From Escherichia virus KFS-EC: DNA of 64,000 nucleotides. Shown piece after piece: positions 10,143 through 60,531 of the stretch (its first letter is position 1; each line of letters begins with the position of its first letter). Location: the sequence record MH560358. One strand, given 5' to 3'. Under the pieces are notes generated by a model, which saw only the letters and a list, made by a program, of their open reading frames with translations, was not told where the DNA came from and did no database searches. Made by a program: the position numbers and the translations under genes.

Positions 10143-10497
10143 GCTTACAAATCACATTCTTTACTTTATCAGATTTATCAGCCCAATCCAATAGCCATTT
10201 TAACGGAAGGATTGAAACAATAAACGGGGCAGCAATCAAAGCAAACATGATACACCGGATAATCAGGAAAGCGCAAGTAACAAAGCTAGCGATACTGATC
10301 CCGACAAAACAAAATACCATAGAAAACAGAGTAATGATATAGAAAGGCCAGAATACCCACTCCCGCATCTTAACGCCTTTGTATTCTCTGAATTGCTTAA
10401 AATCTACAAACAACTCTCGGATAGACGCATACAGGACCGAAAAATCATCTTTCATTGCTCTGAATGAGCAATCTTCTATTTTAGAATGACCTAGCAT
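10135..10497 (-). CDS. hypothetical membrane protein
   Basis: 120 aa with two strongly hydrophobic segments. Confidence 0.5.
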   Translation of the reverse strand: MLGHSKIEDCSFRAMKDDFSVLYASIRELFVDFKQFREYKGVKMREWVFWPFYIITLFSMVFCFVGISIASFVTCAFLIIRCIMFALIAAPFIVSILPLKWLLDWADKSDKVKNVICKRV

Positions 10498-10499
10498 TA

Positions 10500-10793
10500 T
10501 TAACCGCCTTTCATCATTGATACTGGAATTGTTTTCTGATTTGTGTATAATTGGCCTACTTCAATTTTTTCTTGAATCACCACGACGTTACAATATCCAC
10601 TGTCTTTAAGTTTTCTGATAATGACTCGCTTTTGTTCGTCGGTAATAGGATTGACTGTTCTCACCAATTCACCGCAAATAATAGCACCATCTTTACAATT
10701 ACCAGTAACTTTCATGCTACGACCGTGAACAACAACCACGTCACCGTAAATCACATTTTCGTCGTCGTATTTGGTAATAACCGTTACCGTCAT
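10500..10793 (-). CDS. hypothetical protein
   Basis: 97-aa ORF; RBS AGAGGGAA; preceded by hairpin ggccgcgcaaagcggcc (10814..10830). Confidence 0.5.
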   Translation of the reverse strand: MTVTVITKYDDENVIYGDVVVVHGRSMKVTGNCKDGAIICGELVRTVNPITDEQKRVIIRKLKDSGYCNVVVIQEKIEVGQLYTNQKTIPVSMMKGG

Positions 10794-10838
10794 AATGTAT
10801 TCCCTCTAAGAAAGGCCGCGCAAAGCGGCCTATGTTGA

Positions 10839-11165
10839 TTATTGTTCTACAGTATAGCCGTTGTTTTCAAGCCATGCAATAACAATCTTTTCACCAATTT
10901 CATCGAGCATTTCATCAGCGCCATATTCTTTGATGAAAATCGATGGATCATTATTGCTTACTACGTGCTGGATCACAACATGTTCAGGAATTGCGTCTAG
11001 CAGTTCGCTATGATCATACTCATTAACGATATCTTCAACACTAACACTATTAACCAAATCAACATCATCCATAGTCACAGTAACGCGACCGGACGGACGA
11101 AGTGAATATTGGCTACTTTCAACTTCAACATGTGCACTTTCGCAAGTAACTTTCATATCAACCAT
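10839..11165 (-). CDS. hypothetical acidic protein
   Basis: 108-aa ORF. Confidence 0.5.
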   Translation of the reverse strand: MVDMKVTCESAHVEVESSQYSLRPSGRVTVTMDDVDLVNSVSVEDIVNEYDHSELLDAIPEHVVIQHVVSNNDPSIFIKEYGADEMLDEIGEKIVIAWLENNGYTVEQ

Positions 11166-11179
11166 AATTAATTCCTCTG

Positions 11180-12172
11180 TTAGTAATGGCTAAAACCTTC
11201 GGTTACATCTTCAACCACATAGTAACGATGACAGCGCATTTTGGCATTCGCATAATCTTTCGGAATACTTACAACATGACGCGGATCAACTTTACATTTA
11301 ATGATTCGGCCTCTTCCACCGCCATAGTGCGGAATATAGTGTTTCGCTGCAACGTGGAGGCCATTAGAGCAAGTGCGATCATCATCTGGGTCCACGTCTT
11401 TACGCTTCATTTTAACCGTGCGCCCTGGGCTATTATCAAACGTATGCGTAAAGAAATCTTTATAATCAACATCAACACGTTTCCATGCATAGAAACAACC
11501 ATCTTCCCCGATCTCAATGTCGTTGTGCTCTAAGAAGTCAAACAGACGATCTACGGCCTTACGGCTAGGGTTTTTCTTGCACTTCTCAAAGAAGTTCAGA
11601 TAGTGCGTATATGGCTTATTCTCTTTAATCGACTCCACAACTCGACGAGTCAGATTATTATCAAGAACAATATTATGATAATACACAATACCATTTTCGA
11701 TACGGAAAGCGCCGTGATAATATACTTCAACCGCTTTCTTAATGTCAATCAGCGTAATTGCTTTAATAAAATCATTCTGCTTAACCGCTTCCAGTGCTTC
11801 ATTAAAGTTAACATGTGATGGATCAGCAGTATAAACAATGTCACCACATGTAATAGTAATAAACTTAGTTGAGGCTATGGCTACGATTTTTGAGGAAGTA
11901 GTCACGGGCTTTTTTGCGCGTTCACCGCCTTTTCCTTTACTGGTTTTACGGCGTGCTTTACGTTTTTCTAGTGCCTTGCGACCTTCCGCTACTGCGTCTT
12001 TCTGAATCAGTAATACGCGGGAAGCAGTACGACGAGATACACCAAATGCTGCCGCAAGTGCTTCGCGGGTAGTAAACTTACCTTCGCCCCACTGTTTAGC
12101 CAGTTTGATTTGTTTTTCAGAATCCAGGCATTGAACGTTACGGTCAGAGACGGTGATTTTTGCTTTAGTCAT
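11180..12172 (-). CDS. rIIB: rIIB protein
   Basis: Strong similarity to T4 rIIB (SRLFDFL, FDNSPGRTVKMKR.DV.PDDDRTCS.GLHVAAKHYI.HYGG.RGRI.KCKV.PR.VVSIP.DY.NAKMR); start taken at ATG 12172 with AGAGGA RBS 9 nt upstream. Confidence 0.92.
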   Translation of the reverse strand: MTKAKITVSDRNVQCLDSEKQIKLAKQWGEGKFTTREALAAAFGVSRRTASRVLLIQKDAVAEGRKALEKRKARRKTSKGKGGERAKKPVTTSSKIVAIASTKFITITCGDIVYTADPSHVNFNEALEAVKQNDFIKAITLIDIKKAVEVYYHGAFRIENGIVYYHNIVLDNNLTRRVVESIKENKPYTHYLNFFEKCKKNPSRKAVDRLFDFLEHNDIEIGEDGCFYAWKRVDVDYKDFFTHTFDNSPGRTVKMKRKDVDPDDDRTCSNGLHVAAKHYIPHYGGGRGRIIKCKVDPRHVVSIPKDYANAKMRCHRYYVVEDVTEGFSHY

Positions 12173-12234
12173 AGTATTCATTCCTCTATTAGTTGGGCGA
12201 CTATCGCCGCCCGATTCACATCATTATACCAGAA

Positions 12235-12366
12235 TTATTTTGCTTCGACAACCTTGCGGATTGTGCGGTCTGATACATTATAGATTCGTGCCAGTTCGCC
12301 TTTAGTCAAGCCGCGAGCGTATTGTTTACGGATGGTTTCTTTCTGGATAGCGGTCAGTTTAGTCAT
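12235..12366 (-). CDS. unannotated small helix-turn-helix protein (43 aa) between rIIA and rIIB, resembling the rIIB N-terminal segment
   Basis: MTKLTAIQKETIRKQYARGLTKGELARIYNVSDRTIRKVVEAK; GAGGTGA RBS 4 nt from ATG; aligns with rIIB residues ~20-60 (EKQIKLAKQWGEGKFTTREALAAAFGVSRRTASRVL); below the 60-aa track cutoff. Confidence 0.5.
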   Translation of the reverse strand: MTKLTAIQKETIRKQYARGLTKGELARIYNVSDRTIRKVVEAK

Positions 12367-12377
12367 AATATCACCTC

Positions 12378-14486
12378 TTAAAATTTAACATTCTTAACCA
12401 GTTTCATAAAGTCTTGTGCGCGTTTGTCATTATGCAGAATACGATACCAGTTATCTACAATATCATACAGTAACGGGCTATTCTCTTTAAACTTCGCACA
12501 AACTGCTTTAATTCGTTCGTTTGCTACCGTGAATTTTTCATCACAAATCTTTTTAGTTTCTTCGTCCATAATCCAACGAGTACGAAGGAGTAACTTGGAA
12601 ACCTCTTTATTATAATGACGACCGTACAGTCTGTCAATAAATTCTGGAACACAGCGTTCTAGTTCATCGTCATGAAACAACATAGTGATCACACCCAGAT
12701 ATTCGCCATACCCCAGATGATTGGTCTTAACCTTCTTAGCCAGACCAGCCAGCTTACCGCAAACAAATTCTAGCGCACATTCCAATTGTTCGTCAACGAG
12801 ATATTTTTGTGTCTCGTTTCGAGTAATAATATACTTTGTTACCCCGAAGTAGTCAAGCGCCGTGTGTAATGTATTTTCACTATGGATCGATTTACGACTA
12901 CGGCTTTCGAATGCATCACCTACGCGGAACATGTGCAAGCCTGATAACTCGCGAATCTCTGCCGCTTTCATGTGATGGCTGGTTTTATGCCAATTGTCAC
13001 CAATCTTTTCCATAATATACACGTTAGGCAGCTTGGGAGTAGCTTCACGTTGTGTACGCTCGGTCTTTTCCGGTTTAACTGCTTTAGCACGCAGATCATC
13101 GGCCTCAGACACTTTAATCACGGTCATTTCAGAATCATCATAATACTGTTTGATGTACTCGAAAGTCTCCATATGTTTTTCGTTGTTCTGACGGAACACC
13201 AGTACCTTTTTATTGATTCCGTATTCCTGGACCATGCCGTTAAGAGTCAGTGCACGCAGTTTCGGTTTATCTGTATCATCAATAAGACACGTAATATCTT
13301 CTTTATGCATCCATACAAAATGCGTAATGTTGTATTGACTGCTAACGAAAGCAGGGCGCAATTTACTGATTGTGTGACGAGTACGATACAGAGTATACAC
13401 CTGACCTTCTACGTCATTTGGCGAATCTTTACCAGCATTCACAAACTTATTATAGATTGCTACCGGATCATCCCACTGACCGATCTTACCCATCTTGCTA
13501 ATAATATTGCGTTGCGTCGATGAATACTCGCTCATAAATTGAGCAAGTTTACGCTCTGTTTTAATGTTGGCGATCTTTTCTTTAACCTTTTCCAACATCA
13601 TTTCATTGATTTCTGCAATGCGTTTTTCGATGTTCGCTTTAGTCTCAATTGACAAGTGAACTTCTTCACGCGATGGCATAAGGTCCAGATCACCCAACTC
13701 AAAATTAATGTAAATGGTCTGGTGCTGGCGGTTTACAGCTTCTAACCATGTTCCGCGAACATATTCATACGGGATCGGATACTGGATCTTACCCATGATT
13801 GCATATACTACATAGGAATCGTTATCACGCCCATTACAAACATAATAATTATCAAAGCTAGGGAAATAATTAATTTCGATTGCATTGATATTAGGTTTGT
13901 GTTCCCCAAAATGACGCAGTACAAATTGCGCTTCTCGATGCCATGTCTGAATGTCTTTTTCTTTCACCGGAATAGTGATTTTCAGACCATTGTCTTCATA
14001 GGTCGGTTCGTCGAAAATCTGCACCATTTTCGGCATCGAGTTTTGCACAAATGCCGTAAAGCCATAAGCGCGACCATTGTAATAGTTTACGATTGTAAAG
14101 GTGTCGGTATAGCTATAAGCAGATTTCGCACCTAAACCAAAAGATCCGATATAATCATTAGTCTGGTCTTTTGTTGATTCAAAGTAAACCGTAAACAGTT
14201 GTTCTAATTCTTTCTTAGACGGAATACCAGTACCATAATCACGCACAGAAAAATACGGTTCGATTGCAGTCGGTAAATGAATATCAAACGGACGATCTAA
14301 GGTTCCGGCTTCTTTGTGAGTGTCGGTAGCATTGCACGAATACTCACGGACGCAAGCACGCTCACAATATTGATAAGTGTTCTTAGAAAGCACCATAAAA
14401 GCCTTGCTACTTGCTTTCAGTGAAAAATCAACCGCACCGCTCAAGTCACTGCCAAATACTTCTTCATTATCAATATGCATTTTCAT
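12378..14486 (-). CDS. rIIA: rIIA protein (GHKL-type ATPase domain)
   Basis: 702 aa (T4 725); N-terminal histidine-kinase-like ATPase motifs (DYGTGIP, GSFGLGAKSAY); adjacent to rIIB in T4 order; RBS GAGGA. Confidence 0.92.
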   Translation of the reverse strand: MKMHIDNEEVFGSDLSGAVDFSLKASSKAFMVLSKNTYQYCERACVREYSCNATDTHKEAGTLDRPFDIHLPTAIEPYFSVRDYGTGIPSKKELEQLFTVYFESTKDQTNDYIGSFGLGAKSAYSYTDTFTIVNYYNGRAYGFTAFVQNSMPKMVQIFDEPTYEDNGLKITIPVKEKDIQTWHREAQFVLRHFGEHKPNINAIEINYFPSFDNYYVCNGRDNDSYVVYAIMGKIQYPIPYEYVRGTWLEAVNRQHQTIYINFELGDLDLMPSREEVHLSIETKANIEKRIAEINEMMLEKVKEKIANIKTERKLAQFMSEYSSTQRNIISKMGKIGQWDDPVAIYNKFVNAGKDSPNDVEGQVYTLYRTRHTISKLRPAFVSSQYNITHFVWMHKEDITCLIDDTDKPKLRALTLNGMVQEYGINKKVLVFRQNNEKHMETFEYIKQYYDDSEMTVIKVSEADDLRAKAVKPEKTERTQREATPKLPNVYIMEKIGDNWHKTSHHMKAAEIRELSGLHMFRVGDAFESRSRKSIHSENTLHTALDYFGVTKYIITRNETQKYLVDEQLECALEFVCGKLAGLAKKVKTNHLGYGEYLGVITMLFHDDELERCVPEFIDRLYGRHYNKEVSKLLLRTRWIMDEETKKICDEKFTVANERIKAVCAKFKENSPLLYDIVDNWYRILHNDKRAQDFMKLVKNVKF

Positions 14487-18590: not shown

Positions 18591-18773
18591 TCAGTAACCC
18601 CGCTTAGTGAAGTGATCTATCATGGAATTAATACAATCGGCCTCGCTGATTCCAGATATACCCCATCCGTAGTTACCCCACCTGAAATGCATGTATACAC
18701 ATTCGCCATGATACGATACTTTCACTTCGTCAAATTCTGGGATACTTCGCATAATCATAATAATATTCCTCAA
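18591..18773 (-). CDS. hypothetical small protein
   Basis: 60-aa ORF overlapping dda stop. Confidence 0.4.
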   Translation of the reverse strand: MRNIIMIMRSIPEFDEVKVSYHGECVYMHFRWGNYGWGISGISEADCINSMIDHFTKRGY

Positions 18774-20161
18774 ATATAGTCTACACGATACCGAGCACGG
18801 GTAACACCAACATATAATAACTGCATTGCCAATTCAAAGTCAACATTGTCTGTACACATGCAAGGGGTATACAGGAACACGCGGTCTACGCTGATCCCTT
18901 GTGACTTATGAATGGTGCAAGCTGGTAATGCTTTTACATTCAAGAACATACGCCTCATCGTCCAGAAGGAATCCCAATCTGGTTTAAATTTTGGATTCTC
19001 TTTCTTCATTTCGCGATATTGTCCGGCGACCGTATTCAGATAGATAGAGAAAATGTTCTTCTGACGTTGTTCTGTCAGAATGTTGATTTCTACTAAATCC
19101 GGTTTATCTGTAGTGATTCCGACTGCATCTAAACCGACTTTCTGATTTAGGATTTCTTTGTCTTCGTCATCATCGACGCTTTCCACTTTCAGAGTATAGC
19201 CTAAAACTGGTTGCGGATCTACCCCCGTGCAACGTAATGTAAATTCGCGCGGGATGACCTCTTTAACTCGGATCATCTCACCATTGTTAAAAATAACATT
19301 GGGAATCTTCTTCCCGCGTTCATCTCGCAGATATTCGATCAACGGTTCCTGAGTAACCAGAATTTCATCTACAATCACTGGTTCATCGGTGTTATAAACG
19401 CGCTTACGTACAATTTCATTGAGTTTTTCGACGCTCTTGTTAGTGTAGGCCAGAATACGGTTTTCTAGAAGGTCTTCCGGCGTTTTAACGGTTTCGAAAT
19501 AATGCTTCATAAACTCCGGCAGAGTTGAGCTATGGAATACACCCTCGTTACCGCACTGCTTTTCGAATACCCATTTACCGTTACGGACAGCGGTCGCCAC
19601 ATCAATTATTGGCGCATTAGATCGTTTAATCTCTGTAAGTTCTACATTCTGGAACCTTTCATCGGTGAAGAAAGGAGAGATCGACGTTGCACCGCTCGTA
19701 TCAACTGGTCGTAACTGGTACAGATCACCCACAGCAATAATAACAATTCGACCGTTAATACTCTTCATGAGGATATCAAATAGTTTCTTATCGACCATAC
19801 TCGCTTCATCAACAATGATGATCTGAACATCATCAAGTTTAGGAGTATCTTTTTGCTCAAATACTTGAGTGTCTTCATAGTTGGTCGGATTGAGTCGCAG
19901 AAGTGCATGTAAGGTAAACGCTTGACGGCCTACCGCCTTACTCAAAACTTTTTTAGCCTGGTGGGTAGGCGTTGCCAAAACCACACCAGTTACACCACGG
20001 CGGACCATTTCCTGAACAATGAATTTCATCATTGCGGTTTTACCAGTACCCGCCGCACCACGGACAGTTGTATGCTTCTTTTGTTCAATACGTTTCATTA
20101 GAACATCAAAAGCATGTTTTTGCCCGTCTGTTAACATATCGAAAGTTAATACTCTGCTCAT
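18770..20161 (-). CDS. dda: Dda DNA helicase (SF1)
   Basis: 463 aa; Walker A GAAGTGKT, Walker B IIIVDEASM, SF1 motifs; T4 order dexA-dda. Confidence 0.9.
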   Translation of the reverse strand: MSRVLTFDMLTDGQKHAFDVLMKRIEQKKHTTVRGAAGTGKTAMMKFIVQEMVRRGVTGVVLATPTHQAKKVLSKAVGRQAFTLHALLRLNPTNYEDTQVFEQKDTPKLDDVQIIIVDEASMVDKKLFDILMKSINGRIVIIAVGDLYQLRPVDTSGATSISPFFTDERFQNVELTEIKRSNAPIIDVATAVRNGKWVFEKQCGNEGVFHSSTLPEFMKHYFETVKTPEDLLENRILAYTNKSVEKLNEIVRKRVYNTDEPVIVDEILVTQEPLIEYLRDERGKKIPNVIFNNGEMIRVKEVIPREFTLRCTGVDPQPVLGYTLKVESVDDDEDKEILNQKVGLDAVGITTDKPDLVEINILTEQRQKNIFSIYLNTVAGQYREMKKENPKFKPDWDSFWTMRRMFLNVKALPACTIHKSQGISVDRVFLYTPCMCTDNVDFELAMQLLYVGVTRARYRVDYI

Positions 20162-25630: not shown

Positions 25631-27043
25631 TTAGAAAGTCATGTTATTTGCTAGCTCGTCGAGTTTTTCTCGTTTCTCGGCTTGCTGTGCGCTTTGTGGT
25701 TTAACCTGTGCATTCTCCTGATCTGCGATCTGGTTTGGGACTTCATACCAACGCTGATTGCCTTTTTTCACACCAACGTTAAACCGTGAATAATAGTTCT
25801 TATCACCGTAACGAGACTTGATCTGCTTCATGAGTTGGACGCCCATTTTAGCCAGGTCTTCGGTTTCGATAACACCCAACATAAAGTCGGCAGTAGCCGG
25901 AAGACCTGCCGATTCAGCGGTATCACTCATGTTAAGGTCGGAAGCATCCCAACCCGCGCGGGTAGTCTGTGCCGCAGTCCAACCAACAACATCCCACTTA
26001 ACAAAAAATCCTCGCAGTTCTTCCGCAATCGCCTTAACTAGTGTGTAACTATTTTCAGAGTATACACGCAAGCGAGACGATGCGCAAATCCCAAGATAGT
26101 CAACAATCACAACATCAGGTTTAAACTGTTTCTTGAGTCGCAATTCATTCATTAACGCCTCAAAGTGATTGGAGTTCGCGCCACCAGTCGGATACTGCTT
26201 GATCATCAATTTTCCAACCGGACGATCTCCGTTCTTCTTATTCTTAACCCGCTTCATACGTGCGGAATATTCCGCAAAAGAAACATTACCATTATCCAAT
26301 TCATCTAATGTAATGTCAAGCAAGTTTGCGTCAATACGTTTGGCTACGACATGCTCTGCCATCTCCATTGAGATATACAATACATCATAACCACATTCCA
26401 TATAATCCGCAGCAAGAGAACACAGTCCAAGCGATTTGCCAACGTTTACACCAGCAAGCAACACATTTAGCGTTTTTCTTTCCGCCCCTCCTTTCGTGAT
26501 TTTATTCAACATCGGCAGCTTAAATGGGATCTTATTCGCCTTAGTCTGATATAACAGGAATCGTTTTTCAAAGTCATTAAACCAGTCATGACCTACATCA
26601 GAATCAAACGTAATGGATAGTGCTTCCTGCATAATTTCAGGAATAGCGCCCTCACTAGGCAATTTCTTATTCTGTTTCTCTTTTGGTAGTTGTGCGTTCG
26701 CCTGAATCTCTAGCGCCCGTGACATTGCATTGTACATAGCACGGTCACGAATAAATTTTTCGGTTTCCTTCATTAACCAATCAAGGTCTTCCGGTGTATT
26801 CTCCAGCGAATCGAGAAGAGTTTTAGCCCCTTCATATGTTGTCTGATTGCCTCTCTCCTTGTCTAAAGCAATCTGTAATGCAGTTGGCGTAGGAATATTG
26901 GAATATTCGTCTACGTGCTTTTTAATCAGCTTATAAATCAGTTTTTCTTCGTCTTCGGTGAAGTAGTCCGCTTTAAGGTGAGGCCATACATTCGTAAAGA
27001 ATGCGCCATTGTAAATCAACTGTGAAAAGATAGTTTTAATCAT
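25631..27043 (-). CDS. 41: replicative DNA helicase (DnaB-like), gp41 homolog
   Basis: 470 aa (T4 475); Walker A GVNVGKS, RecA-fold helicase motifs; position between uvsX/40 and 61. Confidence 0.9.
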   Translation of the reverse strand: MIKTIFSQLIYNGAFFTNVWPHLKADYFTEDEEKLIYKLIKKHVDEYSNIPTPTALQIALDKERGNQTTYEGAKTLLDSLENTPEDLDWLMKETEKFIRDRAMYNAMSRALEIQANAQLPKEKQNKKLPSEGAIPEIMQEALSITFDSDVGHDWFNDFEKRFLLYQTKANKIPFKLPMLNKITKGGAERKTLNVLLAGVNVGKSLGLCSLAADYMECGYDVLYISMEMAEHVVAKRIDANLLDITLDELDNGNVSFAEYSARMKRVKNKKNGDRPVGKLMIKQYPTGGANSNHFEALMNELRLKKQFKPDVVIVDYLGICASSRLRVYSENSYTLVKAIAEELRGFFVKWDVVGWTAAQTTRAGWDASDLNMSDTAESAGLPATADFMLGVIETEDLAKMGVQLMKQIKSRYGDKNYYSRFNVGVKKGNQRWYEVPNQIADQENAQVKPQSAQQAEKREKLDELANNMTF

Positions 27044-39088: not shown

Positions 39089-40114
39089 CTAACTTTTTGC
39101 GTTATTTACTTCGGCTAAAAGTTCATCAGAAATACGCTTGACCGCCGCAAGTTCTTCCGGTTCTAGGTTTTGTTCTTCCAGATATTCATAGACCATCTGA
39201 ATAGTGCTTTTAACTTCAATAACACCTGTTTCCTGTGATGCGCTACTCTCCAGTTTATGGACCACTTTTAGCTTGTGTACAACGGCCTCTAACGCGCTTT
39301 CTAACTTAGTTAATCCATTATCAGCGACCGTTGCGATAAGACGCACACTAAGCCCTTTAAATCGTTCTACATCGATTTTATCGTCTGACGGGTAAGTGAT
39401 ACGCACATGATAAGTTTTGTCATTCTGGATAAACTCTTTTTTGTGTGTATCGGTATCGAATACCCAAAAACCACGCGGATCGTTTTCGTCACCCGCCGTT
39501 AGTGTGTATGGTGTACCAATATACGTTACGTTACCGCCATCACTAATAGTATGAAAATGACCAGAAAACACTTCACGGTATTTCTTGAGGAAGTCCGCGC
39601 TATAACCTTCGGATTTTAGCCCTTTATAGAAATAGTAACCGGACAATTCCCAATGGCCTACACAATATTCGCTGAATGAGTTTTGAATAAACTCTAAAAT
39701 CTCTGATTTATTGTCATCACAAAACCACGGGAACAGATCAAATGATACACCATCAAAGGTAACTGTTTCAGGTTTATCAATGACCTTAATGCAATCATAC
39801 TGGCTTAACACTTCACGCGGTGCGTTAGGCTGGATCTTGTTTCGTTTAAACATATCATGATTCCCGACCGTGGTATAACAAGTAATACCAGCCTCTTCCA
39901 GTAACGGGATGACCTTAGTACGGTTAAATTTCATGGTTTCATGGGTAATTGCTTTTCGGCAATCAAACCAATCCCCTGTTTGAATCCATGTCTTAATATT
40001 ATGCTCTTTGGAGTATTCAACCGCTTTCTTGATGGTATCAAGAATATACTCATGCACCCACGGATCATCGCCACCGATACCAGTATGCAGATCACCTAAA
40101 AGCAAAATTTTCAT
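39089..40114 (-). CDS. 47: recombination endonuclease subunit (SbcD/Mre11-like), gp47 homolog
   Basis: 341 aa (T4 339); calcineurin-like phosphoesterase motifs (LLLGDLH, GDWFD, GNHD, GHFH). Confidence 0.9.
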   Translation of the reverse strand: MKILLLGDLHTGIGGDDPWVHEYILDTIKKAVEYSKEHNIKTWIQTGDWFDCRKAITHETMKFNRTKVIPLLEEAGITCYTTVGNHDMFKRNKIQPNAPREVLSQYDCIKVIDKPETVTFDGVSFDLFPWFCDDNKSEILEFIQNSFSEYCVGHWELSGYYFYKGLKSEGYSADFLKKYREVFSGHFHTISDGGNVTYIGTPYTLTAGDENDPRGFWVFDTDTHKKEFIQNDKTYHVRITYPSDDKIDVERFKGLSVRLIATVADNGLTKLESALEAVVHKLKVVHKLESSASQETGVIEVKSTIQMVYEYLEEQNLEPEELAAVKRISDELLAEVNNAKS

Positions 40115-40154
40115 AGTCTCTTCCTCTCTTCGTTTTCGATGCTCTCACTATATC

Positions 40155-40182
40155 ACAGAAAAATAAAAAGGGAAACCCTTTT
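40155..40182 (-). terminator. candidate rho-independent terminator upstream of gene 47
   Basis: minus strand AAAGGG-uuu-CCCUUU hairpin followed by UUUAUUUUU. Confidence 0.45.
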
Positions 40183-40204
40183 CAGAGTCTCCCTTATAAA
40201 GCCA

Positions 40205-40492: not shown

Positions 40493-40728
40493 GTTATTTT
40501 TCCTTCTGGGATATAGTCGATGATTAAAGAAAATTCATCTTCTGATACATTATAGCTATGTGAGATTGTACCCGTCAAGACCTCAAGATCCGGTGATTTG
40601 ATATTGCACGGATCGATAATCACCGGAACGCCGCAATCTCTCAAAAATAATTTGGCGAAATACGGCACGAGGTCAGTTTCAAACTCTGCTTCTTCCAGCA
40701 AACGGGAAATGTTAATTTTCAATCTCAT
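40489..40728 (-). CDS. hypothetical small protein
   Basis: 79-aa ORF overlapping gene 55 stop. Confidence 0.45.
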
Positions 40729-41245
40729 AAAATTGGTCCAGGCTAGGCAATTCCTCGGTCAATACATCTTCAACCTTTGGCGCTTTCGGTTTATTGACCG
40801 ATTCCTCGTAGTTGTTGATTTTATCGTAAATGTCCTGTATGAATGCCTCATCAGCAATCTGGCACATATCAGCGTCGCGTTCGTCATATACATGATGCAC
40901 AAAATATTTGTATTTTGCGGCTGTCGCTGTTCTCTCTTTTTTAATGCGCTGTACAAAAGCATTAAAGCACGCTTGCGTGATGTAAGCATGAGGATTTTTA
41001 TACTTTGTCTCGTCAAAATTAATCAAACCCTTGACCGCCGCTTCGATTCCGTCGTCGATCATTTCTTCGCGCCATGTTTGACTATAACCAGAAAAGTTAA
41101 AACGACGTGATAGATTTTTAGAGATTTGCATAATTGCTAGGCCGATTTGATCGCTCATTGGAACTTGCCGACCTTCTGCTGCAATTTGTTGTTTCCAACG
41201 GCAAATTTCTTCGTAAAGCTCTTTATTGTTTACATAATCAGACAC
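40712..41245 (-). CDS. 55: late-transcription sigma factor gp55
   Basis: 177 aa; near-identity blocks with T4 gp55 ([80 protein letters not shown]). Confidence 0.95.
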
Positions 41246-41285
41246 TTCGCACCCTCGCTATTATTTAGGAAATAACCCTTTCGGG

Positions 41286-42755
41286 CTATTCCCCATTGCC
41301 ATTATACTTTCTTTGCTTAGTTATCCACACTCTAACCATCTCTACTGATTCACCGTCAGACGGATCAAGAGTTTTTCCCTTTTTCTTCATGCGGTACTTA
41401 AATCCGTTAAATCTTGCATTCTCTTGCTCGTTAAAATCGAACATCTTTTTAAATGATTTTCGCCCTTTACGCTCACCACATTCTAGCGGAATCATTCGGT
41501 CTGTTATTACATTGGCATTAGGTAGAAACGTTTTTAGATAATCTACCAACGCCCAATCAGGAACATATAGATTAACATTCTCCTTGCTCTCGTTGTCTCT
41601 CAGGTTACAACGCAAACATAATTGAAATGCTGGTTCCAGATAATCAGACACATGACGCGCTTTCAAAAACTCATTTGTCGGGAGATCACAACTATTAGCA
41701 AGACCTTTTAAAATATCAATCTCCCATCGTTGAGGGTTAAAGCTGAACATCACAGCAACATTTTTATGATGAATGTAAGAGTTAAGACCATAAGACCCGT
41801 AAGGTATCCGCTCGCCAATACCATTTGTGCACGCTTCACGGTCCCGATTCACGGTATAAATGAAGTCATCACCACATTCATTTTTAACCATATCAACAAG
41901 ACGTTCAAAGGTATTGTTTGTTTCTGACTGGTGACGCGACCATCGTTCGGAGTCCGTCATAAGGATGATGTTAACTCTATCTGTATTTTTATACTCTTTG
42001 AAATATAGTCTGGATTCTAGCGCACTCGGAACAAAATCGCAATTTGCATAGTATCGTAGATACTTCCCGCTATATGTATCAAAGAGATTTGCACATGCTA
42101 TCGTAACCTTTTTAAAGTCTCCCCACGTACCGTGTTTGTTATCGTTCAAGAAAACAATTTTCGACCCATTCTTCCGGTGTCCTTCGTTATGTTTTACCAT
42201 AACGTTGATTTTCTTCTCTAATAACGCCTCATAAAGCCCTCTAAGAGAAGAATCGATCATATCAGTACCATCCTTTGCACTTTCTATCTTTTCTTTGATA
42301 GCGGCCTTCTCAGAGTCTTTTAGAACTAAGTTCTGTAGGCATTCCGATTCGTCGGCGATTGGTTCGCAATGCTTCGTGATAAGTTCAAGATTAGACTTAA
42401 ACGGATACTCATTAAATTCAACCAGTTGAGGAACTTCATCAATGTAAAGAGCATATTCACCAAACATTTTTGAACGTTCCATATTAGATAACGCTGTATG
42501 TGTAATGAATATCACATCAGCACCGTCTTTAACTGATTGCATTATCGACGCTTGCACTGTCTTAAGGCTTCTTAGTCTGGTGCTATCAATCAAGACAGCA
42601 CGACCGCCCATTCTTTTAAACTTATTGTAAGATTGTTCACTTAAAACACGAGATGGCGAAGCAATAACCGCTTTTTCTTTTGTCTCTAGGACGTGGGAAA
42701 GTATAGCATCAGTTTTCCCCGCCGCTGGCAATGCGATTAATGTTTCAATCTTCAT
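41286..42755 (-). CDS. P-loop NTPase of unknown function
   Basis: 489 aa; N-terminal Walker A ALPAAGKT (res 8-15) and Walker B-like LYIDEV (~res 103); remaining ~370 aa Cys/Trp-rich without recognised motifs. Confidence 0.55.
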   Translation of the reverse strand: MKIETLIALPAAGKTDAILSHVLETKEKAVIASPSRVLSEQSYNKFKRMGGRAVLIDSTRLRSLKTVQASIMQSVKDGADVIFITHTALSNMERSKMFGEYALYIDEVPQLVEFNEYPFKSNLELITKHCEPIADESECLQNLVLKDSEKAAIKEKIESAKDGTDMIDSSLRGLYEALLEKKINVMVKHNEGHRKNGSKIVFLNDNKHGTWGDFKKVTIACANLFDTYSGKYLRYYANCDFVPSALESRLYFKEYKNTDRVNIILMTDSERWSRHQSETNNTFERLVDMVKNECGDDFIYTVNRDREACTNGIGERIPYGSYGLNSYIHHKNVAVMFSFNPQRWEIDILKGLANSCDLPTNEFLKARHVSDYLEPAFQLCLRCNLRDNESKENVNLYVPDWALVDYLKTFLPNANVITDRMIPLECGERKGRKSFKKMFDFNEQENARFNGFKYRMKKKGKTLDPSDGESVEMVRVWITKQRKYNGNGE

Positions 42756-43060
42756 TAGAAACCCTTACGTCGTGCTTTCTGGCATTTCTTGATCATTTTA
42801 TCAGAAATTTCGCGCTTAGGTGCAATCTCTTTCACACCGAAAGCACTAATGCCAAATTCAGAGAGAATATATTCAACCAACAATTCACGCACACGCGATT
42901 TACCGATATTCACGCCGTTATTTTTCAGATATGTCTGGCCTTCGACTTGCATCAGATCTAAATCTGCGTCGGTAATATTGATTTCTTCCATGCGCCCAAA
43001 TCGAGAATAAACCATGTGTGCGATTGCATTGTGTACTAACATAATATATTCCTCACTCAA
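42755..43060 (-). CDS. hypothetical protein
   Basis: 101-aa ORF coupled to the NTPase gene (ATG/stop overlap). Confidence 0.45.
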   Translation of the reverse strand: MSEEYIMLVHNAIAHMVYSRFGRMEEINITDADLDLMQVEGQTYLKNNGVNIGKSRVRELLVEYILSEFGISAFGVKEIAPKREISDKMIKKCQKARRKGF

Positions 43061-43063
43061 GAA

Positions 43064-43222
43064 TTACTTAATGATACTTACTTTACCAGATCCATGACAA
43101 TGAGCGCAACACCCATCACCACGCAATCCTGTTCCGTTACAGTGTTTACACTTCTTCAACGGTAAAGTCATTATAGCAAATAAAGCAATAATGAACACCG
43201 AAACTAAATTCTCAATAATCAT
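43064..43222 (-). CDS. unannotated small protein: N-terminal hydrophobic segment plus DnaJ-type zinc finger (2 x CxxCxGxG)
   Basis: 52 aa: MIIENLVSVFIIALFAIMTLPLKKCKHCNGTGLRGDGCCAHCHGSGKVSIIK; ATG 43222 overlaps nrdH stop; below track cutoff. Confidence 0.45.
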   Translation of the reverse strand: MIIENLVSVFIIALFAIMTLPLKKCKHCNGTGLRGDGCCAHCHGSGKVSIIK

Positions 43223-43481
43223 AAATCGCCCTCAGTTCTTTATAGCCTCCAATGTGCTCGTTGTCAATGAATATCTGGGGGTATACAAACCGGAGGCTCT
43301 TTGAGTTTAGCCTCCCCGCCAGTTCTTCAATCATATCACGGTCGGGAATAATGTCAACCCCGACCTGCTTGAATACTGGTTTAAGTGTATACGGAATACC
43401 CAGATCATCCAGTAGCTTCATTGCACTAATACAACCATAACAATGATAAGCCTCTTTCGGTATACCGTATATCTCGATCAT
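43212..43481 (-). CDS. nrdH: glutaredoxin-like protein NrdH
   Basis: 89 aa; CYGC redox motif near N-terminus; adjacent to nrdG/nrdD. Confidence 0.7.
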   Translation of the reverse strand: MIEIYGIPKEAYHCYGCISAMKLLDDLGIPYTLKPVFKQVGVDIIPDRDMIEELAGRLNSKSLRFVYPQIFIDNEHIGGYKELRAIYDY

Positions 43482-43978
43482 TTCTCAGCCTTTAATCTTT
43501 CTAGTTCTTCTTCCAGTTCCTTGATCCGTTGGTCACGTTCAAAGTCACGCTGCAACTTAATGGCGAATACTCGTTTAAACTGATTGTAATCATCGATTTT
43601 AAACACTTCTTCTTCGCCATAGCGACGCACAGAAACTTCGTAGTTATTGAAGAATTGTTGCATCATTGCTTCGGATGATAGCTCTGCTGATACCACTTTA
43701 AAATATTGATCTTCTGTAGGCGAAAACCAATTACAAGCATAAAGATAAACCTTTTCATTGTCTGGACACTGGTAAGCCTTACCATCGATTTCAATCACAG
43801 AAACATATTCAGGTATACTAGATGAATCAATAGCTAAGACTTTAAACGCACGGTCCCCGATAAACTCGGAGATCACACGATTCGCATCACTGGTTGCAAA
43901 TGCTTTACGCGCTTGTTCGTTTTTCCACTGATAGGTCATACCAACAACAAACATATTACCAACCTCGCTCTTTACCAA
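43478..43978 (-). CDS. hypothetical protein, one copy of the WxxGKTYxWKD/IEIDG repeat module plus coiled-coil tail
   Basis: 166 aa; shares module with 43956..44780, 44793..45266 and 49663..50841. Confidence 0.55.
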   Translation of the reverse strand: MVKSEVGNMFVVGMTYQWKNEQARKAFATSDANRVISEFIGDRAFKVLAIDSSSIPEYVSVIEIDGKAYQCPDNEKVYLYACNWFSPTEDQYFKVVSAELSSEAMMQQFFNNYEVSVRRYGEEEVFKIDDYNQFKRVFAIKLQRDFERDQRIKELEEELERLKAEK

Positions 43979-44780
43979 TCAAAAATTCAACTTCACGACG
44001 TTTAATGTCTTCTTGAAGGTCTTTAATCTTCTGGCGATCTTGCATTATTTCGTCCATCTTGTCAAGTGCTGCGATGAAATCATCGAAACGTTCAAAGGTT
44101 TTACCTTCATTTGCTTCGCCAAATTTAACCATTGTCAGGCCGTAACGACTACTAAACAGACGTTTCAACTGTCCAACGATTTTAGAATCAGTGGTTATAA
44201 CTTCCAATTCTTCTACTTCACGAAAGAATTTTCTATCAGAATCAATAAACCAGCTAGTTCCTTTATGGTCTCTATCTTCGGTTGCGCTCATTAGAGTATG
44301 GTCTTTACCATCAATTTCAATTACATCAATTTGCCCACATGGACTAACATTTTTAACAGTAAAAGGTCTATAATTTATTGCTCGTGCAATAACATAATTA
44401 AGGTTAGATACGTTTTCAGCATAATGGCAGAAGTCGGTCATAGCATTCGCATCTTTCCAAGTATAAGTTTTACCAACTTCCCATTTCTGGGGAACTTCTT
44501 CAACTTCACGAAAGAATTTTCTATCGAATGGACTAAAGAAATATGTTGCAGTCCAAATGTCTTTTCCTGTAGCAGTTTTCGCCGTATGATAAACACCGTC
44601 TAGCTCTATTGCATTAATCCAACCGTTGCCATCAATCTCGATGATGGTAAATGGCTTGTCACCAATAGCTGCACTAATATCGCTGTTAAGTGGAGAAAGA
44701 ACACCTTCTCCGTTAGTAATAAACTCAGTTTTAGCGTTTTCGTCTTTCCAGGTGTAAGTTTTACCAATTTCCCATTTCAT
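43956..44780 (-). CDS. hypothetical protein, two tandem copies of the repeat module plus coiled-coil tail
   Basis: 274 aa; internal duplication (WEIGKTYTWKDENA...DRKFFREVEE and WEVGKTYTWKDANA...DRKFFREVEE). Confidence 0.55.
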   Translation of the reverse strand: MKWEIGKTYTWKDENAKTEFITNGEGVLSPLNSDISAAIGDKPFTIIEIDGNGWINAIELDGVYHTAKTATGKDIWTATYFFSPFDRKFFREVEEVPQKWEVGKTYTWKDANAMTDFCHYAENVSNLNYVIARAINYRPFTVKNVSPCGQIDVIEIDGKDHTLMSATEDRDHKGTSWFIDSDRKFFREVEELEVITTDSKIVGQLKRLFSSRYGLTMVKFGEANEGKTFERFDDFIAALDKMDEIMQDRQKIKDLQEDIKRREVEFLIGKERGW

Positions 44781-44792
44781 AATATATTCCCC

Positions 44793-45266
44793 TTAACCGA
44801 TTTTATCAAGTTCGTTTAATGCTTTCTCTGCTTCCTGTATAGCTTGCACCCTTTCCGGCATTTTGTCAAGAAAATCTTTCAACTCTTCAAAACTGGAGAT
44901 ATGACGCAAGGCGTTAGCACCGATAGCCGCATGTGATTTGCATTCAAAGCGGATTTTATAATTATCCATCGCCAACTTGAGAAGATCAATTAATTTAGAT
45001 TCTTCTGGAATAATAATTTCTTCAAATCTGCTACGGTCATGATCCAGAAACCAACAAGATAGACCTACATCGGTTGAACTCATATAAGTTCCATCATGAA
45101 GATAAACAGACCGCACGTATCCTTTTTTCGCATCAACCGACGCAACTTTAAACGGTAATCTCAGATATTTCAAATAATCAACATCATACCATTTAAAAAA
45201 TTGGTTTGCATCTTTTACATCTTTCCACGCATAGGTCTTACCAGCTTCCCATTCCATAATAATCAC
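44793..45266 (-). CDS. hypothetical protein, one copy of the repeat module
   Basis: 157 aa; MEWEAGKTYAWKD... same module family. Confidence 0.55.
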   Translation of the reverse strand: MIIMEWEAGKTYAWKDVKDANQFFKWYDVDYLKYLRLPFKVASVDAKKGYVRSVYLHDGTYMSSTDVGLSCWFLDHDRSRFEEIIIPEESKLIDLLKLAMDNYKIRFECKSHAAIGANALRHISSFEELKDFLDKMPERVQAIQEAEKALNELDKIG

Positions 45267-45267
45267 C

Positions 45268-45777
45268 TCAAATAATTTTCACTGGAATACTATTAACAAT
45301 CTTGTATTGTACTTGATTGTCAGACCCCCGCCACGGCTTCTTCGTTGGCATATCTTTAATATAACGCCCATCGATGAACACGTCAACTGATTCTACAATT
45401 TTTCTTTGCTCATCATTCAATTGGTCAAGGGTATAACCAGACCATAGCCAAATATCTTTATTTGGCATCCATGATTTTACTTCATCGATGATCCGCTGTA
45501 CACCCTTTAAATTGCGTTTATACAGTGGATCGCCACCTAAGAATGTTAGCCCCTGAATAAAATCAGGTCTAAGCAGATCCAGAATCAATCCCATTGTATC
45601 ATCGGTGAATGGTTCCCCGTTCTTAGGATTGAGTAGGCTAGCATTAAAGCAACCATCACATGCGTGTGAACATCCGGTAACGTAAAGGGAGACTCTCACT
45701 CCCTCACCGTTAACCATATCACAATCTTTAATATCGGCATAGCGTAGTTTGCCGTATGTATCAGAACTCATATTCAA
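45268..45777 (-). CDS. nrdG: anaerobic ribonucleotide reductase activating protein (radical SAM)
   Basis: 169 aa; radical-SAM cluster CSHACDGC; adjacent to nrdD. Confidence 0.85.
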   Translation of the reverse strand: MNMSSDTYGKLRYADIKDCDMVNGEGVRVSLYVTGCSHACDGCFNASLLNPKNGEPFTDDTMGLILDLLRPDFIQGLTFLGGDPLYKRNLKGVQRIIDEVKSWMPNKDIWLWSGYTLDQLNDEQRKIVESVDVFIDGRYIKDMPTKKPWRGSDNQVQYKIVNSIPVKII

Positions 45778-45988: not shown

Positions 45989-46555
45989 TTATTTAAATTT
46001 TTCGAGAGATTTCAACCACAGGCGGCCTGGTAGGTACTCTCCGGCAAACATGAAATTGTCATCTGGATAAGAACGCAGCATATTCAAAATAAACTTCCGG
46101 CACTCTTCGTAATCTTTACGTTTAAGATAAATCACATTCTCGCCAGTACCGATCACACCTTTGCTGTATCCATGCTCTTTACGCACAGACCATTGTACAG
46201 TATCCTTTTTAACCCGAATCACAACAGGTTCCCAATACCCAGCGCATCCGGCTACACCACACGAACAGGTGAGGAAGTATTGACCTTTTGCTTTGTTTTC
46301 CTCCCACCCGATATTAACCGGATGCCATTCGTGAAACAAGGCTAAAGCATCGTGTGTCTCTTCGATCTGTTTATTGTCAATTCTTACCGTAACCATCCAT
46401 ACAGGGATCTTATTTGTTGGTTCATCATCATAACATGAATCATCATAACATGAATCATCATCAATATGTTCTAATGTCATATCAACATTAATTGATTTTG
46501 CGTGTTCCAGGTGTCGTTGTGCTTTACGTTTACGGTTTAATGATTTCATAGTCAC
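45989..46555 (-). CDS. hypothetical protein (Cys-rich), contains in-frame 15-bp tandem duplication
   Basis: 188-aa ORF; DSCYDDSCYDD encoded by catcataacatgaat x2 at 46426..46455; true start may be internal. Confidence 0.45.
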   Translation of the reverse strand: MTMKSLNRKRKAQRHLEHAKSINVDMTLEHIDDDSCYDDSCYDDEPTNKIPVWMVTVRIDNKQIEETHDALALFHEWHPVNIGWEENKAKGQYFLTCSCGVAGCAGYWEPVVIRVKKDTVQWSVRKEHGYSKGVIGTGENVIYLKRKDYEECRKFILNMLRSYPDDNFMFAGEYLPGRLWLKSLEKFK

Positions 46556-47134: not shown

Positions 47135-47162
47135 ATTATACATGAGCTAATCATGTTGTCAA
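47135..47162 (-). promoter_or_regulatory. early sigma70-type promoter
   Basis: minus strand TTGACA-16-TATAAT immediately after terminator hairpin. Confidence 0.55.
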
Positions 47163-47169
47163 CACCCCA

Positions 47170-47200
47170 AAACGAAAAAGCCGACCCTTTCGGATCGGCT
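47170..47200 (-). terminator. rho-independent terminator after nrdD
   Basis: minus strand AGCCGA..TCGGCU hairpin followed by UUUUUCGUUUU, 6 nt after nrdD stop. Confidence 0.6.
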
Positions 47201-49632: not shown

Positions 49633-49666
49633 GGGAGTATTATAGCATACTCCCTTCGCATGTCAA
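49633..49666 (-). promoter_or_regulatory. early sigma70-type promoter with stem-loop over -10 (PeSL-like)
   Basis: minus strand TTGACA-16-TATAAT inside GGGAGTAT..ATACTCCC inverted repeat. Confidence 0.55.
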
Positions 49667-50841
49667 GCACTAACTTTTTTCTTTACTGCTTTCACCTTCT
49701 GGCGAATTGCTCGAATCTCTTCGATCTCTTTTTCAGTCTCTTTAACAATTTCTTTGCGATTCTGAATATCTGTATCTAGATTCTCATCGAGTTTAGGAAG
49801 CATGTCGATCAAGAACTTTTTAAAGTCTTTCAGGTTTCGGATAACAGCACCTTCACCCATTACCGCAACACCCACACCATCCGGCAGATCACCAAACAGC
49901 TTAACCAGTTCAGACAGATGATCATAGTCTTCTAATGCTTCCTCCGGTTCAGATGGCAGTTCAACAAAGTTATAACGTTCATCATTGCTGATCAAGTGAT
50001 ACCAGCAAAGCCCGAAAGATTTCGGTGTATATTCTACACCATCAATTTCAACCGCGTCAACACTTCCATAATCATCTACTTTAGTTACCTTAAATCCTTG
50101 TCCCAGCTTTTGAACAATTTCAACAACATGACTTGATACAGTTTCAGCGGTAAACCAATATGGCAAATTATGCTGATTTGGCTTGTAGCGTTCACCTACT
50201 TTAAATCTCTGACCATCCGCTTGCATAGCATGAAATTGTTGTTTCGTGATTTCCGCGAAGTATTCAAATTCGCTACCGTCAAACAAGCAATTCCATTGAC
50301 CACAAAAACGGTCCGCCTTGACGGTTTCACCTTTCGCGGTGATCATGGTAGCTGATCCGTGCAATTCTTCTTCAACTAAAAAGCCATATTCGACAAAATC
50401 AACAAGTTTCATAGCTTCTTTGTGATCTGGATCATGCTCTCCCCAGAATCTCTTAAATTCTTGCAAACCTTCTGGTGTAAACGAATAACATTTACCTTTT
50501 TCAAAGTAAGTCGGCATTGCATCCTCTTTCTTGTTCATCGCTTCGTATGCCTCTTTTGATATACGTTTAAAGTATTTGCGCTCATTGTGCATAATCATAG
50601 TAGACCAATAATAAACGATATCCTCAGCGGAATAAACTACATCTCCAGCTTCAATAGTAATAACATGACCGTGGTCATCTTTTTCTAATACTTTAAAGCC
50701 CTTTTCGACGATTTCAGCAACCCGAATATGACCACGGCGCGAAGCATCGGTCAGAATAATTGAATAGCGAGAAAAGTCTAGAAACTCATCTTTACCGCCT
50801 TCACGGAATGCATAGTAATGACCTTCAAAGAATTTAGCCAT
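49663..50841 (-). CDS. hypothetical protein with three copies of the repeat module and a coiled-coil tail
   Basis: 392 aa; modules related to those in 43478..45266; GAGGA RBS. Confidence 0.55.
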   Translation of the reverse strand: MAKFFEGHYYAFREGGKDEFLDFSRYSIILTDASRRGHIRVAEIVEKGFKVLEKDDHGHVITIEAGDVVYSAEDIVYYWSTMIMHNERKYFKRISKEAYEAMNKKEDAMPTYFEKGKCYSFTPEGLQEFKRFWGEHDPDHKEAMKLVDFVEYGFLVEEELHGSATMITAKGETVKADRFCGQWNCLFDGSEFEYFAEITKQQFHAMQADGQRFKVGERYKPNQHNLPYWFTAETVSSHVVEIVQKLGQGFKVTKVDDYGSVDAVEIDGVEYTPKSFGLCWYHLISNDERYNFVELPSEPEEALEDYDHLSELVKLFGDLPDGVGVAVMGEGAVIRNLKDFKKFLIDMLPKLDENLDTDIQNRKEIVKETEKEIEEIRAIRQKVKAVKKKVSA

Positions 50842-60463: not shown

Positions 60464-60531
60464 AAGTCATTCCCCCAGATTTAAAATATTCAGTTATATT
60501 TATAATCTGGGGCTTTATTTATGATTAACTC

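Follow-up and report, generated by a model that had tools for sequence, protein, structure and literature searches.

A probable accessory superfamily 2 DNA helicase encoded between genes 55.2 and 55 of Escherichia virus KFS-EC

T4-type phages serve as a reference for replisome biology, and a conserved motor protein found in 242 phage records has gone unstudied among them. What this protein may do is the question raised by Escherichia virus KFS-EC (sequence record MH560358), of which a stretch of 64,000 nucleotides, hereafter the window, was analyzed. The window derives from an RB49-like coliphage of the genus Krischvirus (its positions 41000–43300 match 57 phage records at a minimum of 90% identity, and RB49 at 99.3%), and the gene in question encodes a protein of 489 amino acids (aa) on the minus strand directly upstream of gene 55. 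Its RB49 counterpart is RB49p044, and with a single exception the GenBank records inspected name it a "hypothetical protein". The first-pass annotation of the window, made from the sequence alone, had described a P-loop NTPase and offered a nucleic-acid modifying kinase, a helicase-like ATPase, and an anti-defence ATPase as candidates. The evidence presented here makes it likely that the product is an accessory, probably early superfamily 2 (SF2) DNA helicase or translocase, similar to XPD and DinG without their Fe–S cluster, that would act on intermediates of phage replication and recombination.

Gene identity and genomic position

The two open reading frames (ORFs) described in the first-pass annotation, one of 489 aa at 41286–42755 (−) and one of 101 aa at 42755–43060 (−), were recovered at exactly these coordinates. 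Judged by its full-length homologues, which fall in 42 protein clusters and occur in 242 phage records, the 489-aa ORF is a real gene. It matches the profile of PHROG 2467, a family without assigned function, over its full length (E = 8.8e-175; residues 1–489 against profile positions 8–502 of 502). An AAGGG Shine–Dalgarno sequence lies 6 nt upstream of the ATG, and the start codon shares one base with the stop codon of the upstream ORF in a TAATG junction at 42753–42757 (−).

On the minus strand the gene order runs from nrdG through to nrdH (43212–43481), a 52-aa ORF with CxxC motifs (43064–43222), the 101-aa ORF, the 489-aa ORF, gene 55 (40712–41245), a-gt.5, a-gt.4, and gene 47 (39089–40114). 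Gene 55 is thus the immediate downstream neighbour, as had been stated. The accompanying statement that the 489-aa gene lies where T4 carries its α-glucosyltransferase was mistaken. The T4 order is 55.2, 55.1, 55, a-gt.5, a-gt.4, a-gt.3, a-gt.2, mobB, and a-gt, so that the T4 α-glucosyltransferase gene is found beyond gene 55, with a-gt.2/mobB on one flank and 47 on the other; the 489-aa gene instead takes the T4 55.1 slot, between 55.2 and 55. The proposed connection to a DNA-modification neighbourhood was built on this misplaced synteny.

Conserved helicase motifs

Conservation was assessed in two alignments, one of 30 phage homologues at 31–74% identity and a wider one of 70 relatives at about 20% identity. 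A word-indexed search gave 42 clusters of full-length homologues at 31–99% identity, and those with names were proteins of T4-type phages. Motif I (Walker A) reads PAAGKT at residues 10–15 (42711–42728, −), followed by motif Ia (ASxSRxLSxQS, residues 32–42), motif Ib (FITHxAL, residues 83–89), and motif II (Walker B; YIDEV, residues 104–108; 42432–42446, −), which reads DEVP, not DEAD or DEAH. The Walker strings reported earlier were confirmed exactly, with ALPAAGKT beginning at residue 8 and LYIDEV at residue 103. The C-terminal part of about 370 residues, in which no motif had been recognized, contains a motif III-like strand (TIAxAN, residues 218–223), motif IV (FIYTxN, residues 298–303), motif V (GLN, residues 323–325), and motif VI with its arginine fingers (FQLCxRxxxR, here FQLCLRCNLR; residues 377–386; 41598–41627, −). 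Motifs I and II, together with a motif VI of the form QxxxRxxxR in the second RecA-like domain, are those of an SF2 helicase or translocase. Residues 120–489 had also been described as rich in Cys, Trp, and Tyr. For Trp and Tyr this does not hold (1.4 and 4.3%, versus 1.3 and 4.2% in long ORFs of the same strand), and Cys is mildly raised (2.7 versus 1.4%), with only C130 and C380 conserved in the family.

P10, G13, K14, and T15 are invariant in the 30 phage homologues, and among the 70 relatives the invariant columns are K14, D106, E107, G323, N325, Q378, R382, and R386; D106, E107, Q378, R382, and R386, like K14, are invariant in both alignments. At the level of sequence, such invariant catalytic columns are the signature of an active ATPase under purifying selection, and their retention among 70 relatives excludes the kinase reading. 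P-loop kinases have a single P-loop domain with a lid and a substrate-binding region and no second RecA-like domain. The phage protein has two RecA-like domains with motifs IV–VI, and no kinase family was found among its Pfam, NCBIfam, or PDB-chain sequence matches. Its fold and the invariant arginines of motif VI are those of a helicase or translocase motor, and the nucleic-acid modifying kinase was rejected.

Pfam models matching the protein or any of the 70 relatives were confined to DEAD, ResIII, and generic AAA. The DEAD match to the protein itself is borderline (27.4 bits versus a cut-off of 26) and covers the first RecA-like domain (RecA1) only. An NCBIfam scan of the 489-aa protein and a phmmer search against PDB sequences returned no match, and the narrower profile gave only noise against the PDB.

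Predicted structure and likeness to XPD/DinG

An AlphaFold2 model calculated from the 30-sequence alignment is confident (pLDDT 87.9, pTM 0.77) and shows two RecA-like domains; its matches number hundreds of SF2 structures. At the top of the structural matches are Finegoldia DinG (score 17.9), the type IV-A3 CRISPR effector DinG (17.5), yeast Rad3 (17.4), and Xpd4 (17.2), and XPD/DinG structures align ∼80 more residues than other SF2 enzymes. The Foldseek comparison of the full protein that had been suggested as a check was carried out and also placed XPD/DinG-type helicases on top (XPD, type IV DinG, Staphylococcus aureus DinG, and CasDinG; E values from 4e-10 to 1e-7). Among the candidates named previously, the helicase-like one is therefore borne out by the SF2 motifs, the two RecA-like domains, and the best structural matches, whereas the kinase and the anti-defence ATPase are not.

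In the model, RecA1 is interrupted between motif II and the motif III-like strand by an insertion of ∼105 residues (residues 110–215; 42111–42428, −). This is where the Arch domain sits in XPD, Rad3, and DinG, the likeness being one of position. RecA2 is followed by a basic C-terminal tail (residues 421–489; 41289–41495, −) with a net charge of +7 (family median +8), predicted to be helical, with helices at residues 435–439, 443–458, and 468–486 of the model. The tail is possibly a nucleic-acid- or protein-binding module, and some distant short relatives have weak, sub-threshold helix-turn-helix (HTH) matches at the equivalent position.

The nearest known proteins are the members of the XPD/Rad3/DinG group without an Fe–S cluster, namely CRISPR type IV CasDinG and S. 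aureus DinG. An Fe–S cluster in the phage protein was ruled out by the absence of Cys from residues 1–119 and by the presence of only two conserved Cys. Sequence identity to XPD/DinG is 8–17%. The phage protein (489 aa) is much shorter than those top-ranking XPD and DinG chains that are full-length (551–887 aa; the Sulfolobus tokodaii Xpd4 chain has 459), its insertion is shorter at ∼105 residues, and its basic tail is extra. On the basis of the model, the protein is considered to work like an XPD/DinG-type helicase without an Fe–S cluster. It is likened to that family and not filed in it, because the Fe–S cysteines, the DEAH box, and matches to the DEAD_2 and Helicase_C_2 models are all missing.

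Distant relatives fused to primases

A profile search run exhaustively over 1.84 billion representative proteins returned 1,320 relatives, 758 of them below 1e-10. Many of the distant relatives are 750–890 aa long, and their extra C-terminal 300 residues, which match no Pfam family, carry the motifs LDFDxG, PRFRV, SGLDxSK, and GxGNxxFF. The matches listed for this C-terminal region are HP0184 (9.0), Prim-PolC (8.2), a CRISPR-associated Prim-Pol (7.7), the LigD polymerase (7.4), and the RepB′ primase (7.3). C-terminal to the primase fold is a helical domain, for which one of 13 members gave a weak PriCT_1 match. The order in the fusions (proteins P0043, P0190, and P0221) is accordingly an N-terminal XPD-like helicase, an archaeo-eukaryotic primase (AEP)-type primase-polymerase, and the helical domain.

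The genomic surroundings of these relatives are those of mobile elements. In metagenomic contig L012 a fusion gene (10001–12445) comes right after an integrase gene and an HTH_17 gene, and in contig L013 a short form (10001–11392) follows integrase and AlpA genes and precedes DUF927 genes. The slot after an integrase and AlpA or HTH_17 is the usual place of the replication protein in integrative elements, and the fusions appear, from their sequences and surroundings, to be replication proteins of an uncharacterized type that serve such elements. One copy, from Bradyrhizobium, is surrounded by hypothetical genes in an island, and a further one has transposases and a type I restriction-modification system as neighbours. 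Plasmid relatives of the phage protein were not found; three partial matches on Sinorhizobium megaplasmids were obtained for one long relative. The fusion to a primase-polymerase and the integrase neighbours are therefore taken as a pointer to a role in DNA replication.

A helicase prediction for what is probably the same group has already been published. Kazlauskas et al. (2018; PMC5862659) described SF2-like domains fused to AEP primases of the All3500 family, gave as their closest homologues uncharacterized proteins of "some T4-like phages" (pVOG1685) and of SPbeta (pVOG9714, UL9-like), and predicted a new family of helicases in viruses and plasmids. Relatives of the window protein share with that family the fusion to an AEP primase-polymerase; they differ in domain order, the helicase being C-terminal in the published fusions and N-terminal to the primase in those found here. 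Membership of RB49p044 in pVOG1685 was not confirmed, as nothing bearing on it was found in the supplements of PMC5862659, and the published description fits. The window protein belongs to a distinct, uncharacterized family of predicted helicases that is catalogued as PHROG 2467.

Distribution among T4-type phages

The 242 phage records with a PHROG 2467 gene, as found by tblastn, include Krischvirus, RB43-like Pseudotevenvirus, Aeromonas phages (44RR, 25, 65, and others), Proteus phage PM2, Morganella phage MP1, Erwinia phage Cronus, and phages of Cronobacter, Citrobacter, Enterobacter, and Serratia. Phages of the T4, T2, and T6 type are not among them. A third word-indexed search, with the broad profile, mostly returned the same set of phages; a partial match in Pseudoalteromonas phage PH357 had an uninformative context. 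The gene usually lies immediately upstream of gene 55, as it does in RB49, 44RR2.8t, PM2, and phage 65; RB43 has a rearranged block in which 55.2 nonetheless precedes the helicase gene.

The window also encodes Dda (18770–20161), gp41 (25631–27043), the gp61 primase, UvsX, and gp43. Since Dda, gp41, and gp61 are all present, the protein is an additional helicase and not a replacement, and the possibility that it substitutes for Dda or gp41 was discarded. The idea that the gene occurs only where phage DNA is unmodified was likewise ruled out, as Aeromonas phages 44RR and 25 carry the helicase gene and encode gp42, the dCMP hydroxymethylase (PMC2993671). Nothing specific was found in the literature on Krischvirus helicases or on DinG-like helicases of phages.

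Relationship to gp55.2

The upstream ORF could be identified as the orthologue of T4 gene 55.2 from its sequence. It matches Pfam DUF7570 (E = 2.7e-28; 98.3 bits versus a cut-off of 27) and is 42% identical to T4 gp55.2 over the full length (E = 3e-20); RB49p045, of 288 nt, is gp55.2 by annotation, as is its RB43 counterpart. The 101-aa version begins at a TTG at 43060. The ATG at 43042 has a GAGG Shine–Dalgarno sequence 8 nt upstream and corresponds to the RB49 start, and the ORF therefore probably begins at this ATG and encodes 95 aa (42755–43042, −). T4 55.2 and the 55.2 of the window have the same place between nrdH and gene 55; in T4 the gene is followed by 55.1 and in the window by the helicase gene. 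T4 gp55.2 binds DNA, inhibits Escherichia coli topoisomerase I, and improves phage fitness (PMC4396842), DNA binding and topoisomerase I inhibition having been shown only for the T4 protein.

In the first-pass annotation this ORF had been regarded as a coupled partner of the 489-aa protein. The one-base TAATG overlap on which that was founded is exact, but the supposed partner is the known gp55.2, a syntenic neighbour and not an obligate one. Gene 55.2 is present in 1,090 phage records, about four times the 242 of the helicase gene and most of them without it; T4 itself has 55.2 and no helicase gene; and the ORF overlapping the start of the 44RR2.8t helicase gene has no relationship to 55.2. 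A dedicated partnership was ruled out on these three grounds. Overlapping junctions are also the rule in this region (nine of 17 same-strand junctions between 38 and 47 kb), so the overlap of the 489-aa and 101-aa ORFs is weak evidence of pairing.

A link in function between topoisomerase I inhibition, R-loops, and a DinG-like helicase would be attractive. It is conceivable, though improbable, that the helicase and gp55.2 work as a module which governs DNA topology and R-loops when replication begins. Here, gp55.2 would block host topoisomerase I, with the resulting negative supercoiling favouring R-loops, and the helicase would use its basic tail to recognize R-loops or a specific origin and would open or process them so that the replisome could load. 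Were this so, the non-T-even T4-type phages would possess a route of initiation that is absent from T4 and derived from the helicase-primase replication modules of integrative mobile elements.

Expression signals

A GC-rich stem-loop terminator followed by a perfect TTGACA-16-TATAAT promoter is found at 47135–47200 (−). The arrangement resembles the PeSL (promoter-early stem-loop) elements described at cassette boundaries in RB49 and phi1 (PMC2839356) and may mark the start of an early transcription unit. A hairpin resembling an intrinsic terminator, with a 12-pair stem followed by a T-run, lies after a-gt.4 at 40168–40195 (−) and may mark the end of the unit. Together, the two signals bracket the gene block containing the helicase gene. 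The T4 late-promoter consensus TATAAATA does not occur near the helicase gene, and its single exact occurrence in the 64 kb is at 60497–60504 (−), where chance would give 5.8; such scarcity fits a window made up almost wholly of early-region DNA and a selection against the motif there. Because the promoter and terminator bracket the block and a late promoter is lacking nearby, the helicase is probably expressed early, from a promoter of the sigma-70 type.

Between the stop codon of the helicase gene and the GTG at which gene 55 starts lie 40 nt (41246–41285, −) that include a small CCC-GAAA-GGG hairpin and, after it, a T-rich run. This hairpin shares its GAAA loop with the terminator hairpin at 47200–47179 and may be an attenuator ahead of gene 55.

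Proposed mechanism and alternative functions

In the mechanism we propose, RecA1, with its insertion between motifs II and III, RecA2, and the basic tail would form a single motor. ATP would be bound and hydrolyzed between the two RecA domains through K14/T15, D106/E107, Q378, and R382/R386, and hydrolysis would drive movement along single-stranded DNA passing under the arch-like insertion, with the tail helping to hold the nucleic acid. Such movement could unwind duplex DNA, R-loops, or D-loops, or displace bound proteins, at intermediates of phage replication and recombination. The reality of the gene, its motifs, fold, distribution, and synteny, and the fusion of relatives to primase-polymerases are established computationally; DNA as the substrate, the polarity, the timing of expression, and the biological role are what we infer. 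T4 offers precedents in UvsW, which is also an SF2 enzyme, and Dda, both accessory phage DNA helicases that exist beside the replicative gp41, as is proposed here.

Several observations weigh against this assignment. Recognition at the sequence level is limited to a generic RecA1 (Pfam DEAD near its threshold, and ResIII in relatives), and the broader profile, when run against the PDB, covers only motifs I–II of assorted SF2 proteins, RNA helicases included. DEAD_2 and Helicase_C_2, the Pfam models for XPD/DinG, match neither the protein nor any of the 70 relatives, and the Foldseek TM-scores to XPD/DinG are moderate (0.41–0.49). The 4Fe–4S domain of XPD/DinG is absent, residues 1–119 containing no Cys and no Cys being invariant in the 70 relatives, as is the DEAH box that is a hallmark of these enzymes, motif II reading DEVP. 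With both features missing, the polarity of XPD/DinG cannot be transferred with confidence. For every member of the family, helicase activity is a computational prediction. The phage proteins have no primase domain, which makes the replication role one of guilt by association, and the absence of the gene from T4, T2, and T6 shows that the T4-type replisome can dispense with it. Consensus scans are the sole source for early expression, and in them promoter-like sites barely exceed the number expected after shuffling (36 versus 29.7).

The primase fusions that point to replication would also suit an origin-recognizing initiator helicase, comparable to UL9 of herpesviruses or to helicase-primases from satellites and genomic islands, in which the basic, possibly HTH-like tail would bind a specific site in phage DNA and the motor would open the duplex for loading of gp41 and gp61, giving the phage an initiation route that T4 is without. 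Relatives of the protein occupy the replication-protein slot beside integrase and AlpA, eight of the 70 short relatives have weak C-terminal HTH signals, one relative has a weak Herpes_ori_bp match (E = 0.0014), UL9 similarity has been noted for the sister group pVOG9714 (PMC5862659), and the tail is basic across the family. The HTH and UL9 matches, however, lie below curated thresholds and are absent from the phage protein; a repeated or origin-like DNA element beside the gene is not known, no search for one having been made; and T4-type phages already start replication by way of R-loops and recombination. We therefore regard an initiator as unlikely. Equally unlikely is a double-stranded DNA translocase or remodeller that would strip RNA polymerase or nucleoid proteins from DNA in the manner of Mfd or Swi2/Snf2. 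The matches to XPD/DinG score clearly higher, with their ∼80 additional aligned residues, Swi2/Snf2-specific insertions are absent, and Pfam SNF2 gave no match in the protein or among the 70 relatives.

An anti-defence ATPase, which might displace a nuclease or effector complex from phage DNA, perhaps together with gp55.2, is a poorer prospect still. It would fit an early region rich in host-takeover ORFs, a position beside an inhibitor of a host enzyme, and the absence of the gene from T-even phages, whose DNA contains glucosylated hydroxymethylcytosine (hmC). Anti-defence genes are usually patchy in distribution. This gene has instead kept its position and sequence in genera whose hosts are Escherichia, Aeromonas, Proteus, Morganella, Erwinia, and Cronobacter, and its presence in the hmC-containing Aeromonas phages 44RR and 25 means that it does not simply track unmodified DNA. 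The sole PADLOC match, to RTasSLATT, is at chance level (E = 0.0088, 13.6 bits), leaving this earlier candidate without positive support. The least probable of the alternatives is a DEAD-box RNA helicase that would remodel phage or host RNA, for example in mRNA turnover. The Pfam DEAD match just above its cut-off, best profile-to-PDB sequence matches to Mss116 and DDX proteins (∼1e-6), and goF-like mRNA-metabolism genes nearby all lean that way. These PDB matches, though, are confined to motifs I–Ia. As the protein begins only nine residues before the P-loop, a Q motif could not be accommodated; motif II reads DEVP, and SAT and HRxGRxGR motifs are lacking. The best structural matches are to DNA helicases, and the relatives are fused to DNA primase-polymerases.

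An accessory DNA helicase or translocase of XPD/DinG type thus remains the preferred reading. As a compact, Fe–S-less helicase with helicase-primase relatives, present in addition to gp41, Dda, and gp61, the protein provides a testable hypothesis and a better annotation for its family. The finding would carry more weight if the protein served a separate initiation or rescue of replication, or acted jointly with gp55.2; as it stands, it is real but fairly ordinary and reveals no new kind of system.

Neighbouring features

The 52-aa ORF between nrdH and 55.2 (43064–43222, −) has an N-terminal hydrophobic helix and two CxxCxGxG repeats, which constitute the DnaJ-type zinc-finger motif. It matches phrog_3931 and is annotated as "putative membrane protein" in phage W115, and its sequence suggests a very small zinc-finger protein anchored in the membrane. 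A group of paralogous ORFs lying a short way upstream of the helicase block (43478–43978, 43956–44780, 44793–45266, and 49663–50841, all −) belongs to phrog_5347, the goF-like "mRNA metabolism modulator" family. They share an N-terminal motif GKTYxWKD..., one of them has the module twice, and the set looks like a local expansion of a gene family.

In comparison with RB49, the window lacks the HNH homing-endonuclease gene RB49p040, which in RB49 lies between gene 47 and a-gt.4, as well as RB49p051. The corresponding sites of difference in the window are 40115–40204, 45232–45269, and 46005–46511, the last of which has no blastn match in RB49. These differences are typical of the cassette-level variation among Krischvirus isolates. 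A 188-aa ORF at 45989–46555 (−), located in a stretch that differs from RB49, contains a short tandem DDSCYDDSCYDD repeat near its N terminus.

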